Assembly (NCBI GenBank): GCA_048885535.1
Contig: JBHLLO010000016.1
Location: 1 to 51,018 of the forward strand
Direction of reading: 5' to 3'
Source of the DNA: Candidatus Hermodarchaeota archaeon
GTDB taxonomy: Archaea > Asgardarchaeota > Lokiarchaeia > Sigyniarchaeales > SOKP01
Length of the DNA stretch: 51,018 nt
Shown: piece by piece, positions 21,411-26,888 of the stretch
How positions within the stretch are numbered: the stretch's first letter is position 1
Layout: each line of letters opens with the position of its first letter
The notes under the pieces: generated by a model
The model's input: only the letters and a program-made list of their open reading frames with translations
Database searches by the model: none
Told to the model about the DNA's origin: nothing
Position numbers and translations under genes: made by a program

Positions 21411-22754
21411 CTAAAAAGTTATAGTTTCAATATTTTTCAGCTTCACTACGAGTCCGCTATCTCCCGCATACAGCGACGATAGGGCTGTGTTTCGTAGCAA
21501 ATCCAACCGTTTATAGAAGGATTCCTCGGTCAAGGAGGGTTGATGCGATAGGAAACTGTATTTATGTTTCTTACGAATAAATCTTTCAAGAATATTTACT
21601 GCAGAATTAAGATCTCGATCAAGTTGGTTTCCACAATCACATATCATAATTCTTTCGGAGAGAGCTCTCTTTTTCTTTCTTCCACAAATGAAACAATTTT
21701 GGGAGGTATACGATTCGTCAATTCTTATTACTCTTTTACCTATTTTTCTTGCTTTATAGGTTAAGAATTCGGCAAATCGACCCAGAGAGCCTGTATTATG
21801 AATAGAATAATTTAAGGTTCTGTTCCTTTTTGTTTTAGTTGCATTCCCTGTACCTTTTTTTCTCTTGGCCATCTTTTTTACTGATAAATCTCCAATTATA
21901 ATCGTATTTGCTTTCGTATTTGAGACAATCTTCTTAGATATTTTATGTTGATAATCTCGCATTTGATTTGCACATCTCCGCTTCATTTTACTAAGTTTTT
22001 CATTATATTTATGCCATCGATGACTATATTTTTTACAATGGTCTCGTTTTGATTGAACTTCATTAACTTTTTTTTTCCAATAAAGATCCGCCCTTCTATT
22101 TTTAATCTGGATGAATTTTAAGTGTAGATTGACCGCTGATACAAGGTTGGAAATACCTAAATCGATTGCTTGATAAAGCCCATTATCTGTGTAGTTTACT
22201 GGAGTAAACTCATAGATTATACAGATAAACCATTTATTAGAAAAATGTGTAATCTCGATTTGTTTAATCTTTTCTGTCCCTCTATATGGAGACATAAAAC
22301 GGAATATTAATGGTTCTTTGGAAGGATGATTATGGGAAAACTGAACATGTGTTTTTTTTTTAGCTAATTTAAAACCACTCTGATTGTAGCAAAGGGTAGT
22401 AAAATATTTCTTTCCCTTGAATTTCGGAGGATGTGCTGTTTTGTCTCCATTGTTCCATTTGATAAAAAAAGATTTATACGCACTATCCAGTTTCCTTAAC
22501 GTCATCTGTAACACTTTAGAAAACACCCAGTTGTATTTGGGATACTTCTTTTTTAAGGAAGGTAAATTGTTTTGTTGTTCTTTATAGGTAATATTATGTC
22601 GAGCTTCTTTAGGTTTATCTCGATTCTCTCTCCAATTGTCTATCCTTTCTTTTAACCCAAAATTATATAGTAATCGACATTTCTCTGATAAATCCCATAA
22701 TACATTTGATTGTTCTTGAGTAGGAAAGATTCTGATTTTCTGAGCTAAAAGCAT
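21411..22754 (-). CDS. tnpB: TnpB RNA-guided endonuclease (IS200/IS605 family)
   Basis: N-terminal KIRIFPT..Q HTH, RuvC-I AIDLG, Zn finger CFICG..CDCG, RuvC-III DRDLNSAVNI. Confidence 0.95.
   Translation of the reverse strand: MLLAQKIRIFPTQEQSNVLWDLSEKCRLLYNFGLKERIDNWRENRDKPKEARHNITYKEQQNNLPSLKKKYPKYNWVFSKVLQMTLRKLDSAYKSFFIKWNNGDKTAHPPKFKGKKYFTTLCYNQSGFKLAKKKTHVQFSHNHPSKEPLIFRFMSPYRGTEKIKQIEITHFSNKWFICIIYEFTPVNYTDNGLYQAIDLGISNLVSAVNLHLKFIQIKNRRADLYWKKKVNEVQSKRDHCKKYSHRWHKYNEKLSKMKRRCANQMRDYQHKISKKIVSNTKANTIIIGDLSVKKMAKRKKGTGNATKTKRNRTLNYSIHNTGSLGRFAEFLTYKARKIGKRVIRIDESYTSQNCFICGRKKKRALSERIMICDCGNQLDRDLNSAVNILERFIRKKHKYSFLSHQPSLTEESFYKRLDLLRNTALSSLYAGDSGLVVKLKNIETITF
21440..21560 (-). ncRNA. 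Putative omegaRNA/reRNA scaffold overlapping the tnpB 3' end
   Basis: Locally GC-rich; nested stems CTACGA/TCGTAG (21446-21497) and CTATC/GATAG; position expected for TnpB guides. Confidence 0.55.
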
Positions 22755-22947
22755 ATTACTTAGGTTATAAAGCAATTTGAAATTTTAATGAAAGCTGAGC
22801 GTGAAATTATAAATTTTTAGCCAAATTTCAGAAGATTTATATTTAAAATCATTCCAATATTTTGTAATTTAATTAGTTTATATAGATTTTTCATAATCAT
22901 TACATTTATCTCCTTAAAAAATTACTAAATATTAAAAACGAAATAAT

Positions 22948-23796
22948 GTGATAAAATTGGAAGCGATACTGGGATTTTTAATGATTGTTATTATTGGACT
23001 TTTTAGCCTACTAGGTTTATTTATGATTTCAATTAAAGAAAAGACATTAGACAGATTTTTATTTGTTCTAGTAGCATTTGCCACAGGTACTATTCTCGCT
23101 ACAGCACTATTTGATTTAATTCCAGAATCTATTCATCATCTCGAAGAATTAAATGCAGGAGGTGCTGGGATTAGTGAATCTGTTTTATTCTCTTTTATTA
23201 TAATAGGATTTGTAATATTTTTTATTATCGAACGTTTTATTTATTGGTTCCATGGACATGCTCATGAAAAAGAAGATAAATTAGTTTGCTATGATAGTAT
23301 CACTGAAGGAATTGGAGGCGTTTTAAAAAGGAACGGTAAAATAAAAAATTTTGCACTCCTTAATCTAATAGGGGATTCTTTACATAATTTTCTAGACGGT
23401 ATTATCATAATGGTAGCTTTTTTGAATGGAATCAGTACGGGCTTTATAATCACACTTGCAGTTTTATTTCATGAATTACCCCAAGAGATTGGTGATTTTG
23501 GGATTCTAGTTTATGGTGGTTTTTCCAAAAGAAAGGCACTCATATTTAATTTTGCGAGTGCCATGGTTGCATTATTGGGAGGGTTATTAGTTTATCTGCT
23601 ATCAGATACTATCAGCTTTTTTAACTTATTCTTCTTAGCTTTTTCTGGAGGGGGATTCTTATATATCGCGAGTACCGAATTGATGCCAGAACTAATAAAG
23701 GAAAAAAACCTAAAAAAGTCTATCATTCAAGCACTCCTTTTTTTAATTGGCTTAGTACTGATTATTTTCATGGTACTACTTTTACCACATGAATAG
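22948..23796 (+). CDS. ZIP family metal transporter
   Basis: FDLIPES, HGHAHE loop, GDSLHNFLDG, HELPQEIGDFG, ELMPE. Confidence 0.92.
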   Translation: MIKLEAILGFLMIVIIGLFSLLGLFMISIKEKTLDRFLFVLVAFATGTILATALFDLIPESIHHLEELNAGGAGISESVLFSFIIIGFVIFFIIERFIYWFHGHAHEKEDKLVCYDSITEGIGGVLKRNGKIKNFALLNLIGDSLHNFLDGIIIMVAFLNGISTGFIITLAVLFHELPQEIGDFGILVYGGFSKRKALIFNFASAMVALLGGLLVYLLSDTISFFNLFFLAFSGGGFLYIASTELMPELIKEKNLKKSIIQALLFLIGLVLIIFMVLLLPHE

Positions 23797-23875
23797 TAAG
23801 ATAATATTTCTTTAAATTCTTAAACAAAAGTAGAAAAAAAATATATATTTTTAATATTAACTGTTATAGTCTCTT

Positions 23876-23986
23876 TTAAGCTGGCTTTTTTTTTGGTGCT
23901 GCTTTCTTTTTTGGAGCTGGTTTCTTTTTTGGAGCTGCTTTTTTTTTAGGTGCTGGTTTTTTTTTAGGAGCTTTCTTTTTTGCCAT
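23876..23986 (-). CDS. 36-aa Lys/Ala/Pro repeat microprotein resembling a histone H1 C-terminal domain; missing from the ORF track
   Basis: ATG..TAA encoding MAKKKAPKKKPAPKKKAAPKKKPAPKKKAAPKKKPA; purine-rich GGAAAAGGGACGGA leader; synonymous codon variation between repeats. Confidence 0.8.
   Translation of the reverse strand: MAKKKAPKKKPAPKKKAAPKKKPAPKKKAAPKKKPA
23879..23980 (-). repeat. Imperfect 18-nt tandem repeat with a 36-nt higher-order period, encoding [P/A]APKKK
   Basis: About 5.5 units of (C/G)CA GC(A/T) CC(A/T) AAA AA(A/G) AA(A/G). Confidence 0.9.
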
Positions 23987-24412
23987 TATCCGTCCCTTTT
24001 CCTGCTTTTAATTTATTTTTTTAAATAATCGTAAAAATATGAAAAAATATATACATAACTTAAATTTAAATATTTAGCTTCTGAAATTGAGTTTTTGCTT
24101 TCTATTTCTTTTTGAGTACAACCATTTAAACTCTCGGGTAATTAACAGAAGTGAGGTTATTCTAAGAGGTGATTGGAAAAAAGTCTGATTTAAGCAACCT
24201 AAGTGTCAATTAAGTACAATTACTTTTATAGATCTGTTTATTAACTGTTAATTAAAGAGCTTTAGTATTATATTTTCCTCATAATTAGAAATTAAAAAAA
24301 AAAAAATCTTCTCTCTTTCAAAATAAAAACTCATATTTACCAGTTAAATAATTCAAAAAAGTATATGAGAAAGGAAATATTTATTACTACTAAACGATAA
24401 AGGTGTAAAGAT

Positions 24413-25663
24413 ATACCACTCTTAAGTGATCCTCCTGAAGATATCAATAGTAAATTATTAACTCAAAAATCTTCAGGGGATTATCGAGTATGGCCTATCT
24501 TTATGCTTTCCTTTATTAGATTATGTTATGTATCTATTTTTGAAAGAGCTCTGCAAAATTATTTATATTTTGTTATTAATATTAGCGAGAGTACCTTAGG
24601 TCTAATTTCTTCTGTAGGAGCTATTGCATATATTTTTGCTCCTATCTTAGGTCAATTTATAACTCTGAAATTAGGTATTCGAAATTCAATAATTCTTTCC
24701 TCAATTTTAACACCTATATTAACAGGAGCCCAAGTTATTTACTTTGAACCCTGGTTTTTAATTATGTGTCGTATAATGTTAGGTTTGGCTTTAGGAGTTT
24801 TTTGGCCAAATTGTTTCAATTTATTAAGTAGATGGCAAAAAATAAGTGATACAAAAAGGTCTAATAAGAATTTCAAATTTTTCAACATTTCTTGGAATTC
24901 GGGATTCTTAATTGGACTTATTCTAGGATACATTTGGTCAATTTGGTGGAATGATTACTTTGCCATGATAGTTTCCTTCTTTATGTCTTTCTTATTAATC
25001 CCTGTAAGCATCTTCTTAAATAAAGAGCCCGAATTATCATCAATAGCAAAAAGTCCGGAAATGCAGTTGGATTCATCAATATCTCATATTGAAGTAAAAA
25101 GTAATACCCCAATGATAGTATATCCAATATTGTTCTCTTGGATTGGTATAATCTTCTTAACTATATCAAAATCAAATTTTATCTTTTCTTATCAAATTTT
25201 TTTAAAAGCTTCTGGAAATCCTTCTTCTTATACATATCTTATTCAATTTGGGATACAGGCAGCTCAACTTGTAGGATTAACGTGGATTAATGTCATAAAT
25301 ATTTACAAAAGAAGGGTGTATGTAATATTAAGTATTCTTATAATTATCCTATTTTCATCTTTAGTTCCCACTATTGACAGTATTATGTTTATTTCAATAA
25401 TTAGTATTGCCACAGGTCTTTTTTTTGGCTTAATTCATGGAACATCCATGAAAGTTATGCTTGAACACGGAACAGCAAAAAATACGGCAAAATATTCAAC
25501 TATTAATGAAATTTTAGTTGGAGTTGGATTTGGTTTAACACCAATTATTGCGGGTTATATTGCTGAAATAAACATTAACTTTATGTTTTTCTTCCTATCT
25601 GTATTAGGCTTTACAGTATTAATATTTTTGACACATCTCTCTCGAAACATTAAAAGATATTGA
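24413..25663 (+). CDS. MFS transporter (start uncertain; first ATG is 24503, frame open from 24401)
   Basis: Multi-TM paralogue of 31996-33258; the shared YRVWPIF motif lies upstream of the first ATG. Confidence 0.85.
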   Translation: MPLLSDPPEDINSKLLTQKSSGDYRVWPIFMLSFIRLCYVSIFERALQNYLYFVINISESTLGLISSVGAIAYIFAPILGQFITLKLGIRNSIILSSILTPILTGAQVIYFEPWFLIMCRIMLGLALGVFWPNCFNLLSRWQKISDTKRSNKNFKFFNISWNSGFLIGLILGYIWSIWWNDYFAMIVSFFMSFLLIPVSIFLNKEPELSSIAKSPEMQLDSSISHIEVKSNTPMIVYPILFSWIGIIFLTISKSNFIFSYQIFLKASGNPSSYTYLIQFGIQAAQLVGLTWINVINIYKRRVYVILSILIIILFSSLVPTIDSIMFISIISIATGLFFGLIHGTSMKVMLEHGTAKNTAKYSTINEILVGVGFGLTPIIAGYIAEININFMFFFLSVLGFTVLIFLTHLSRNIKRY

Positions 25664-25868
25664 TTTGAGTTTTCAATTATTTTAACTTTTTTTATATTAT
25701 TTAGGTTTCAACTTCCCAATCCGGAATTTGGTATAGATTGGTTCTTGAAACAATTTTTACAAAAAATAATACCTCAATTTCCTTCAATATCGATTTAAAT
25801 AGATGATAGAAAATCTATTACATAATAATTCTAAACAAAAATTTAGTTACCATTATGGAGTGATATGT

Positions 25869-26888
25869 ATGAAATTAAGAAATTATGGGATCTTAATGAT
25901 AATGATACTCTCTTTATTTGCTTTTAGCGCTAGTTTTAATGTGGCAGCTACAATCGATGATGATAATGATGGTATTGATGATGATTATGAAGAATCACAT
26001 AAACGTAACATTGAAGTTGAGCTTTTCCCAGATGAAATTAAAGTAGAATCACATTTACGTCAAGGTCCAATTGATGAAATTGAGCTGGAAGTAAAATATG
26101 ATAATAATGGCGTTGATATTAAAGTTAGCTATGAATCTGAATACACATCTGAGAATGAAACTGAATTTGAAATAGAGTTTGAAGCAAGCTTTCGTGAATT
26201 AATAGAATTTGTTGATTTGAATAGTGATGGTATATACGAACCTTCAATTGATAACACAATTCAGGAAATTGCTTTAAATAGTTTCAAACCTGCTGTATAT
26301 ACCTCATCTAATATCTCTACCGATACAACCTTACATTATATATTTATAAATAGTACAGATGGAGTTTTTGCTGCCCATTTATATGTTGTTGAGGAATATG
26401 CTATAGTAAATGGAACCTTTATTGCACCAACCTCTTTAAAAATTGACATTGAAATTAATAACTTCAATTACATCGATGGAAATTCGCAATTAGCCTTGTA
26501 TGTTAAACTTAGCTCTAGCGGTGAATATGAATATGAAGAAGAAACTGAAGATGAGAAAGATGGATATACCTCAGATGAATCAGGAGTAAAAACTGAAATA
26601 AATAATTATAAAGGCGCTTTTACGTGGAAGGAAAATGCAACTATTGACGGAATTTCAAAACAAGTCTTAGCAAGTCAAATAGAAGTTGATGATGATGATG
26701 AGAATGAACAGAAATTATACCTTAACTATCCTAGGGGCGACTCTATTTACCACGATCCAACGATGAGTATTTATTCGATAAATCGGGGGATTACTGATTG
26801 GTTTCCTTTTATATTAATTGGTAGTATAATAGGGATTATTGGGATTGTTAGTATAAGTAGTATTGTTATCATTAGAAGAAGAAAATAA
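25869..26888 (+). CDS. Acidic secreted protein with a C-terminal membrane anchor, paralogue A
   Basis: Signal peptide after a GGAGTGA RBS, DDDNDGIDD and DLNSDG Ca-binding-like loops, YHDP, C-terminal TM + RRRK. Confidence 0.75.
   Translation: MKLRNYGILMIMILSLFAFSASFNVAATIDDDNDGIDDDYEESHKRNIEVELFPDEIKVESHLRQGPIDEIELEVKYDNNGVDIKVSYESEYTSENETEFEIEFEASFRELIEFVDLNSDGIYEPSIDNTIQEIALNSFKPAVYTSSNISTDTTLHYIFINSTDGVFAAHLYVVEEYAIVNGTFIAPTSLKIDIEINNFNYIDGNSQLALYVKLSSSGEYEYEEETEDEKDGYTSDESGVKTEINNYKGAFTWKENATIDGISKQVLASQIEVDDDDENEQKLYLNYPRGDSIYHDPTMSIYSINRGITDWFPFILIGSIIGIIGIVSISSIVIIRRRK

Follow-up and report, generated by a model that had tools for sequence, protein, structure and literature searches.

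Does the short, lysine-rich reading frame at positions 23876–23986 of contig JBHLLO010000016.1 (Candidatus Hermodarchaeota archaeon, assembly GCA_048885535.1) encode a protein, and what could such a protein do? The window analysed here, 51,018 nucleotides (nt) in length, represents one entire contig of a 3.09-Mb genome comprising 112 contigs with 30 % guanine plus cytosine (GC). An earlier note, made from the letters alone, had proposed a hidden gene for a stand-alone microprotein resembling the tail of linker histone H1. Comparison with relatives indicates that the microprotein gene is real, conserved and under purifying selection at the protein level, and that its product is, judged by sequence, a free-standing copy of the lineage's own histone tail lacking the histone fold. 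As such, it is a candidate for the first stand-alone histone-tail/H1-like polycation in archaea.

The microprotein and the evidence for coding

The frame encodes 36 amino acids (aa), MAKKKAPKKKPAPKKKAAPKKKPAPKKKAAPKKKPA, which follow the pattern MAKKKAPKKK(PAPKKK/AAPKKK)x2PA and comprise 18 K, 9 A, 8 P and 1 M (50 % K, 25 % A, 22 % P), with zero acidic (D/E), aromatic or large hydrophobic residues. The listing of open reading frames (ORFs) and the composition confirm what had been claimed about length, lysine content and absence of acidic residues; the peptide carries a charge of about +17.5 and weighs 3873 Da, or 3742 Da once Met is removed. Direct reading of the codons likewise upheld the alternation of PAPKKK and AAPKKK with repeats that differ at synonymous sites alone, differences within the PAPKKK pair and within the AAPKKK pair being confined to GCA/GCT, CCT/CCA and AAA/AAG. 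Tandem Repeats Finder resolves the gene into 3.0 copies of period 36 or 5.7 copies of period 18, and the pattern [AP]1-3K2-4 (x3) matches a single frame in the whole genome. AlphaFold2 predicts no secondary structure (predicted template modelling score, pTM, 0.17). Matches were obtained neither in Pfam (E ≤ 0.01) nor in NCBIfam (E ≤ 1) or among PDB sequences (E ≤ 1), be it to ribosomal or to other named small prokaryotic proteins.

At 30 % GC, a 36-codon open frame alone is unremarkable (about 5 % of random 36-codon stretches are open, as a rough estimate). Since the frame is by itself uninformative, its conservation in relatives was examined, and the sequence comparisons point to conservation beyond chance. 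Pairwise differences at codon positions 1:2:3 amount to 37:18:154 in the window's subgroup (PAPKKK/AAPKKK; 6 sequences), 8:42:382 in the KKKAPAKKAGP subgroup (9 sequences) and 0:4:103 in the APAKKK subgroup (5 sequences). The corresponding counts of synonymous/non-synonymous differences are 132/38, 361/42 and 102/4, i.e., synonymous codon differences are 4 to 26 times as numerous as non-synonymous ones. Length changes among the orthologues are all in frame. The protein-level selection claimed by the earlier note is thus supported by the third-position bias in three subgroups and by the in-frame length changes.

Reads of four DNA runs from a single study, three of which may be the source of the window itself, confirm the sequence. 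In one of these sediment runs, a contig of lower depth carries a co-occurring variant of the gene that departs from the window at 23933, 23945 and 23963, each a third codon position. Over 23903–24004, this variant contig (run X2) displays five differences, three of them those listed, and its flank is like that of the truncated L002-type allele. The variant contig together with its L002-like flank indicates that two related strains or species co-occur in the sediment sample.

The lysine codons of the microprotein genes carry a further signature: the share of AAG is 34 %, versus 24 % in the genome's long ORFs. Moreover, AAG is placed such that runs of A are shortened, with a mean longest A-run of 7.8 nt versus 9.2 ± 0.16 nt upon shuffled AAG placement (0/1000 shuffles as low). 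This placement fits selection for faithful transcription and translation by avoidance of poly-A slippage. That the gene is real and translated is considered very probable.

Relation to the tailed histones of the lineage

The ten-codon start was scanned in one genome per prokaryotic species, and the at least 112 matching stretches were sorted by frame reading. Among the matches listed are (i) 23 lysine-rich ORFs of 25–40 aa, 20 of which are located on 26–33 % GC contigs (mostly titled Promethearchaeota) and 3 on bacterial contigs of 51–70 % GC, (ii) 28 archaeal histones with the motif AP[IV]RRLM, (iii) 44 other longer proteins, and (iv) 9 other short frames as well as 8 running off the locus end. 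The histones among these matches are 77–94 aa long, begin with MAKKKAPAKK(K)SEGYIAKAPIRRLMKKEG and are, by their sequence features, lysine-tailed Asgard histones. The source genome's own histone (C18:30354-30593; 79 aa, MAKKKAAPKAKKGETYIAKAPIRRLM; PF00808, E 3.6e-11) begins with MAKKKAAPKAKKGETY.

The first 7–15 residues are common to the microprotein and the N-terminal tails of the family's histones (MAKKKAPAKK...SEGYIAKAPIRRLM). Over the first 15 residues, histone L171 (MAKKKAPAKKAPAKKK then SEGY) equals microprotein L164, and histone L142 (MAKKKAPAKKKPAPKGKK then SDAGY) equals microprotein L208; PAPKGK is common to histone L142 and L005, L006 and L015. Microprotein and histone genes have a like layout, with a TATA box about 80–87 nt upstream and a leader with a Shine-Dalgarno (SD) sequence, but for Ala2 the microprotein mostly uses GCA and the histone GCT. 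Since, among 400 genomes of the phylum, this start is confined to the window's order, histone tail and free peptide represent the same kind of sequence in the same lineage. Of the earlier proposals, a histone tail supplied in trans therefore appears to be the best-supported part, given the identity of the first 7–15 residues with histone tails of the same family.

Tailed-histone genes that are cut short were also encountered, namely L061/L192 (G154:C7) with 20 aa (MAKKKAPAKKKSEGYIAKNV, followed by a stop) and L092/L179 (G140:C128) with 52 aa. They could reflect a frameshift, a pseudogene or an assembly error, and illustrate a possible route to a tail-only product.

Distribution among relatives and absence from annotations

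Intact orthologues of 27–38 aa, starting with MAKK(K/A)AP, are present in 33/135 species genomes of family f1, distributed over the genera g1 (17/42), g21 (1/10) and g22 (15/54). Family f1 belongs to the same order as Ca. Lokiarchaeum ossiferum. A further 7 intact copies were found on 26–33 % GC contigs among 21 pattern matches in the metagenome collection of the Joint Genome Institute (JGI). The 33 copies share 44–54 % Lys, an isoelectric point (pI) of about 11 and a charge between roughly +14 and +18, and their 1111 residues are drawn from K, A, P, M, G, T, S, V, R and N alone.

The sensitivity of the searches bears on these counts. The initial protein search revealed small MAKKKAP-starting ORFs in 8 other species of the window's genus, and a nine-sequence profile detected the microprotein in 13/42 members of genus g1 (lower bound). 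Upon searching whole genomes, the profile missed 5/5 known copies in one set, where its sole match was an 85-aa frame, and 1/5 in another. Counts from protein and profile searches are therefore lower bounds, and the search was switched to a nucleotide pattern covering the ten initial codons. This pattern is present in 71/154 genomes of the window's order; the reversed pattern yielded 0, likewise 0 in 400 genomes. Each of the 83 matches in the order was classified by frame reading, and those other than the microprotein are tailed histones, an AAA_5 ATPase with a similar N-terminal tail and one unrelated 44-aa ORF. As the pattern demands MAKKKAPxKK, variants such as MAKKAAP (G010) escape it and the distribution figures are again lower bounds.

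Across 400 genomes of the phylum (33 families), the MAKKKAPxKK start occurs in 69/134 genomes of f1, in 1/14 of f2 and in 0/246 outside the order, the lone f2 match being the histone of Ca. L. ossiferum. The assignment of the DNA to an Asgard archaeon holds, since the window's order contains Ca. L. ossiferum and records of relatives are titled Promethearchaeota. Homologues, for which the earlier note had suggested a pattern search, are indeed found as intact copies in 33 genomes of three genera. An Asgard-wide occurrence, by comparison, is not borne out: the three genera belong to one family, and the start pattern is absent outside the order.

Standard resources miss the gene, as had been anticipated for gene callers. 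Exact microprotein sequences, including the window's peptide, are absent (0/10) from a collection of 15 billion proteins, and the homologous-protein search recovered 1 protein among 4093 candidates, a relative's 57-aa call mis-started at a wrong upstream ATG. The nine-sequence profile gave 3 matches at E ≤ 1e-3 (213–383 aa, E about 3e-4 to 7e-4) against 1.84 billion proteins, which are taken as low-complexity noise. Record DATKTW010000064.1 (L118; G011:C64), titled 'Candidatus Nanopelagicaceae bacterium', carries the microprotein of the window's archaeal genus; its bacterial title looks wrong.

Similar tails on other proteins

In bacteria, N-terminal tails of the MAKKKAPAKK type are fused to HU (PF00216), SWIB and Topo VI-A. 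The tailed AAA_5 (PF07728) ATPase of the archaeal relatives comprises 420–449 aa and begins with MAKKKAP (L141:10-1269 in G079, L144:1501-2847 in G096, also L007, L008, L010, L012 and L014). In the source genome, an RNA polymerase A'-like ORF, named by sequence reading (G000:C12; L212:298-3243, plus strand; 982 aa stop-to-stop), has a lysine-rich C-terminal extension, KAPKEVKKEVKKPKKAVSKAAKKKPETEKK. ORFs of 26–27 aa (MAKKKAPAKKATAKKAPAKK... and MAKKKAPAKKAAPAKKAPAKK...) are found in L095 and L123, contigs of Chloroflexi metagenome-assembled genomes (MAGs) with 67–70 % GC, and in L036 (Rhodospirillaceae). These may be stand-alone bacterial analogues or chance frames.

Gene anatomy and surroundings

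The coordinates of the gene, its predicted signals and its neighbours are compiled in Table 1. Of the features noted earlier for this region, the purine-rich leader and the in-frame upstream stop are both present, the stop-to-stop frame holding the microprotein being 43 aa. The upstream region, given there as about 400 nt, is larger, with an intergenic gap of 516 nt to the divergent MFS gene.

Table 1 Positions of the microprotein gene, its predicted signals and neighbouring genes in the window
Feature	Position	Strand	Remarks
Coding sequence, 36-aa K/A/P microprotein	23876..23986	minus	ATG 23984-23986, stop TAA 23876-23878; ORF listed and frame read
SD-like purine-rich leader GGAAAAGGGACGG	23990..24002	minus	ends 4 nt before ATG; putative function
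In-frame upstream stop TAA	24008..24010	minus	limits N-terminal extension to 7 codons, no start codon among them
B recognition element (BRE)/TATA-like promoter element, CTAAATA TTTAAAT	24061..24080	minus	TTTAAA 24065-24070, 84 nt before ATG
Oligo-T run (T8), likely archaeal terminator	23834..23841	minus	34 nt past stop codon; putative function
ZIP transporter	22948-23796	plus	downstream of microprotein gene, convergent
MFS transporter	24503-25663	plus	divergent
TnpB/Cas12f-like OrfB_IS605 gene	21411-22775	minus	PF07282, PF01385, PF12323; 1.1 kb from microprotein gene, past ZIP transporter
361-aa ORF	25803-26888	plus	no Pfam match

The SD-like site GGAAAAGGGA is conserved in the window's subgroup, with GGAGAGGT or GGAGACGT at the equivalent position in other subgroups. 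The BRE/TATA-like element is the sole upstream block conserved across all 9 aligned loci; a TTTAWA motif starts 73–86 nt upstream of the ATG in 31/33 orthologues, and at -81 or -84 in 15/15 of genus g22. Past the stop codon, a T-run of at least 5 is present within 62 nt in 33/33 orthologues. The gene thus has the sequence characteristics of a monocistronic unit with its own predicted promoter, leader, SD-like site and terminator, and the consensus-like promoter and SD sequence suggest that it is probably expressed strongly.

Neighbouring genes vary between loci in g1 and are partly conserved in g22, and they offer no clue to function. Since the neighbours change and the downstream gene is convergent in the window, the gene is neither a leader peptide nor a member of an operon; a role as leader peptide or upstream ORF was rejected also on account of the terminator that follows. 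An origin as part of the nearby TnpB element was likewise rejected, as the ZIP gene intervenes and relatives keep the microprotein beside other neighbours.

The TnpB/Cas12f-like gene itself has no apparent link to the microprotein. The 361-aa ORF contains long Asp/Glu-rich stretches as well as hydrophobic N- and C-terminal segments, and is probably an acidic protein anchored at the surface. A search of 23000–25000 against Rfam returned no family at threshold, the one match (mir-576, E 0.6; 24855–24921) lying outside the gene.

Proposed function and alternative explanations

The microprotein is probably a DNA-coating polycation, and the chances that DNA or chromatin is its main partner are judged to be about even. 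It would represent an HLoB-type lysine-rich tail, lengthened by [AP]APKKK/APAKKK repeats and devoid of the histone fold. Working in trans, it would most probably serve as a free tail or as a minimal polycation of the H1 type. KKK blocks recurring every six residues, with small Ala/Pro spacers between them, would attach to the backbone phosphates of a genome that is 70 % A+T. Through this electrostatic binding, charge would be neutralised and DNA coated with histones drawn tighter or bridged. The lysines, like those of histone tails, would be accessible to acetylating and deacetylating enzymes. Only tentatively, one Asgard lineage may have turned the histone tail into a separate gene, whose diffusible, modifiable product would compact archaeal histone-DNA fibres in the manner of a minimal linker histone or protamine and vie with nucleosomal tails for writers and erasers.

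Several observations weigh against a histone-derived, chromatin-directed peptide. Similar tails are carried by DksA (bacteria) and the AAA_5 ATPase (these archaea), which are not chromatin proteins, so that the tail alone does not imply DNA compaction; likewise, the extension of the A'-like ORF means that lysine-rich appendages in the source genome are not confined to histones. MAKKKAP starts occur in unrelated bacteria too, the low complexity of the sequence permits no meaningful E-value for homology to histone tails, and the regions upstream of the microprotein and of the histone genes agree in layout but cannot be aligned. Convergence of microprotein and histone tail is thus a possible reading of these sequences. 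In addition, no conserved chromatin-gene neighbour is evident. Start-pattern queries failed to retrieve the microprotein from roughly three quarters of the f1 species genomes, and two repeat patterns retrieved none from five f2/f4 genomes including Ca. L. ossiferum, in which two tailed histones were found. The patchy presence in f1 and the lack of finds in these five genomes imply an accessory function and a dispensable gene. At the level of the gene itself, early stops followed by in-frame repeat remnants occur in 3/33 copies (L002, L004 and L187), pointing to flexibility in C-terminal length, and an antisense Phe/Gly/Ala-rich frame shares the third-position periodicity of the lysine frame.

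Two alternatives retain a functional lysine-rich peptide. Since neither the charge of +17.5 nor the fold-less composition discriminates among polyanions, the microprotein might be a general polyanion binder with RNA/ribosomes or polyphosphate as main partner, serving as RNA chaperone, ribosome-associated peptide or organiser of polyphosphate granules. Lysine-rich tails on RNA polymerase A' and the AAA_5 ATPase would agree with this, as would the additional association of a Toxoplasma H1-like protein with the nucleolus and ribosomal proteins (PMC9769792) and the reported occurrence of bacterial H1-like AlgP on polyphosphate granules (PMC9239181). However, the searched databases hold no ribosomal or other family that matches, no ribosomal gene cluster surrounds the gene, the patchy distribution is unlike that of core translation components, and histone tails are the closest sequence relatives, making a preference for other polyanions rather unlikely. 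A decoy or buffer function is compatible with DNA binding: a free copy of the tail could compete for acetyltransferases, sirtuins and readers and thereby tune histone modification. The identity with histone tails includes Lys3, and parts of a recent study (bioRxiv 10.64898/2026.07.02.735847) describe an AlphaFold model setting the acetyltransferase LoHAT2 against Lys3 of HLoB.2 as well as acetylation by LoHAT2 of synthetic tail peptides, even of the yeast H4 tail. This wholly inferential explanation is nevertheless considered unlikely as the main role, since the repeats exceed the tail length and so point to charge or valency rather than one-site mimicry.

The other two alternatives dispense with the lysine-rich peptide. 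The shortened tailed-histone genes in relatives (20-aa and 52-aa forms), the premature stops in 3/33 microprotein genes and the commonness of short open frames at 30 % GC could suggest a non-functional locus, either the 5' end of a duplicated tailed-histone gene, left over and in decay, or an A-rich non-coding repeat open by chance. Such a remnant or repeat is very unlikely, given frames intact in 33 species of three genera and on 7 metagenome contigs, the 4- to 26-fold synonymous excess, the conserved ATG, SD sequence, TATA box and terminator, and the lack of an Rfam family at threshold around the gene; moreover, the terminator follows directly, with no histone-fold remnant downstream. A pseudogene remnant was accordingly rejected on the basis of intact frames, synonymous excess and conserved signals. 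Selection might instead act on the opposite strand, where a hydrophobic Phe/Gly/Ala-rich peptide (e.g., FFFGAGFFLGA) could be encoded in a frame that is stop-free in 32/33 loci and in which most changes are synonymous too (TTT/TTC, GGN, GCY). This antisense gene was rejected as extremely improbable: a possible in-frame start codon exists in 7/33 loci alone, the ORF listing for the window locus shows none with a start codon on the plus strand, and the conserved ATG, SD sequence, TATA box and T-run all follow the direction of the lysine frame.

Significance

No known organisms are more closely related to eukaryotes than Asgard archaea, whose tailed, modifiable histones have been characterised very recently. 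We know of no culture of family f1. With a separately encoded peptide that consists of the tail minus the fold, the Asgard chromatin system would gain an unannotated component; such a peptide bears on the origin of histone tails and linker-histone-type polycations, including the possibility that tails in trans existed before or alongside fused tails. If the proposed function is true, archaea would have in the microprotein their first chromatin component of linker-histone type, and with it a living model for how K/A/P tails and proteins of the H1 C-terminal type arise from, or are donated to, core histones. Independently of function, the gene represents a clean case of a conserved gene missed by standard pipelines, in which profile searches miss even known copies.

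Comparison with known systems

Lysine-rich N-terminal tails on Lokiarchaeal histones were already noted in parts of earlier work (bioRxiv 10.1101/2021.11.30.470311; PMC6136690), and Asgard histone tails are described, in sections of a later study, as abundant, lysine-rich and acetylated/deacetylated by LoHAT2 and SIR2 (bioRxiv 10.64898/2026.07.02.735847). In the text of the latter, supplements aside, the terms 'linker histone', 'small protein' and 'tail-only' have 0 occurrences, and no description of a stand-alone tail-like or H1-like archaeal microprotein was found in the literature searched. The tailed histones of the HLoB/HMpB type reported there share with the microprotein the MAKKKAP start, the lysine-rich tail and the K/A/P composition. 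In contrast to these PF00808-fold proteins, the microprotein is devoid of the fold and encoded by a separate gene with a different promoter/leader sequence, and its repeats are expanded to 27–38 aa versus about 12–25 aa of tail before the fold.

The likeness to linker histones, as put forward in the earlier note, holds in one respect and fails in another. The microprotein has the Lys/Ala/Pro-rich, disordered and basic composition of H1-type tails, and with 27–38 aa and a pI of about 11 its family corresponds to stand-alone, small and basic low-complexity H1-like proteins. By membership it falls outside the linker histones: no Pfam family matches (that of linker histones, Linker_histone, is PF00538), and 36 aa leave no room for the winged-helix globular domain of H1/H5. 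H1-like proteins without globular domain are known from kinetoplastids, dinoflagellates, Toxoplasma and bacteria and are reported to act on chromatin in kinetoplastids and Toxoplasma (PMC9769792). Those of kinetoplastids, dinoflagellates and Toxoplasma (TgH1-like) are likewise small, stand-alone, basic and K/A/P-rich. Compared with TgH1-like (91 aa; PMC9769792), the microprotein is archaeal, two to three times shorter and strictly periodic, with a period of six residues. Furthermore, it resembles the tail of its own core histone rather than H1, whereas the H1-like proteins resemble the C-terminal domain of H1; common descent cannot be judged on sequence of this kind.

Protamines and sperm nuclear basic proteins are short, fold-less, arginine-rich polycations that condense DNA by charge neutralisation. 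In contrast to their arginine-rich composition, the 33 sequences of the microprotein family contain 547 K and 2 R, and the window's peptide 0 R. Among bacteria, Hc1/Hc2, AlgP and mycobacterial HupB represent K/A/P-rich H1-like proteins or tails. The K/A/P tails of bacterial HU, SWIB and Topo VI-A display the same motif as the microprotein, some starts being identical letter for letter, and are fused to a fold. Bacterial H1-like proteins and tails are thus either attached to a folded domain or much longer, whereas the tail constitutes the entire microprotein here.

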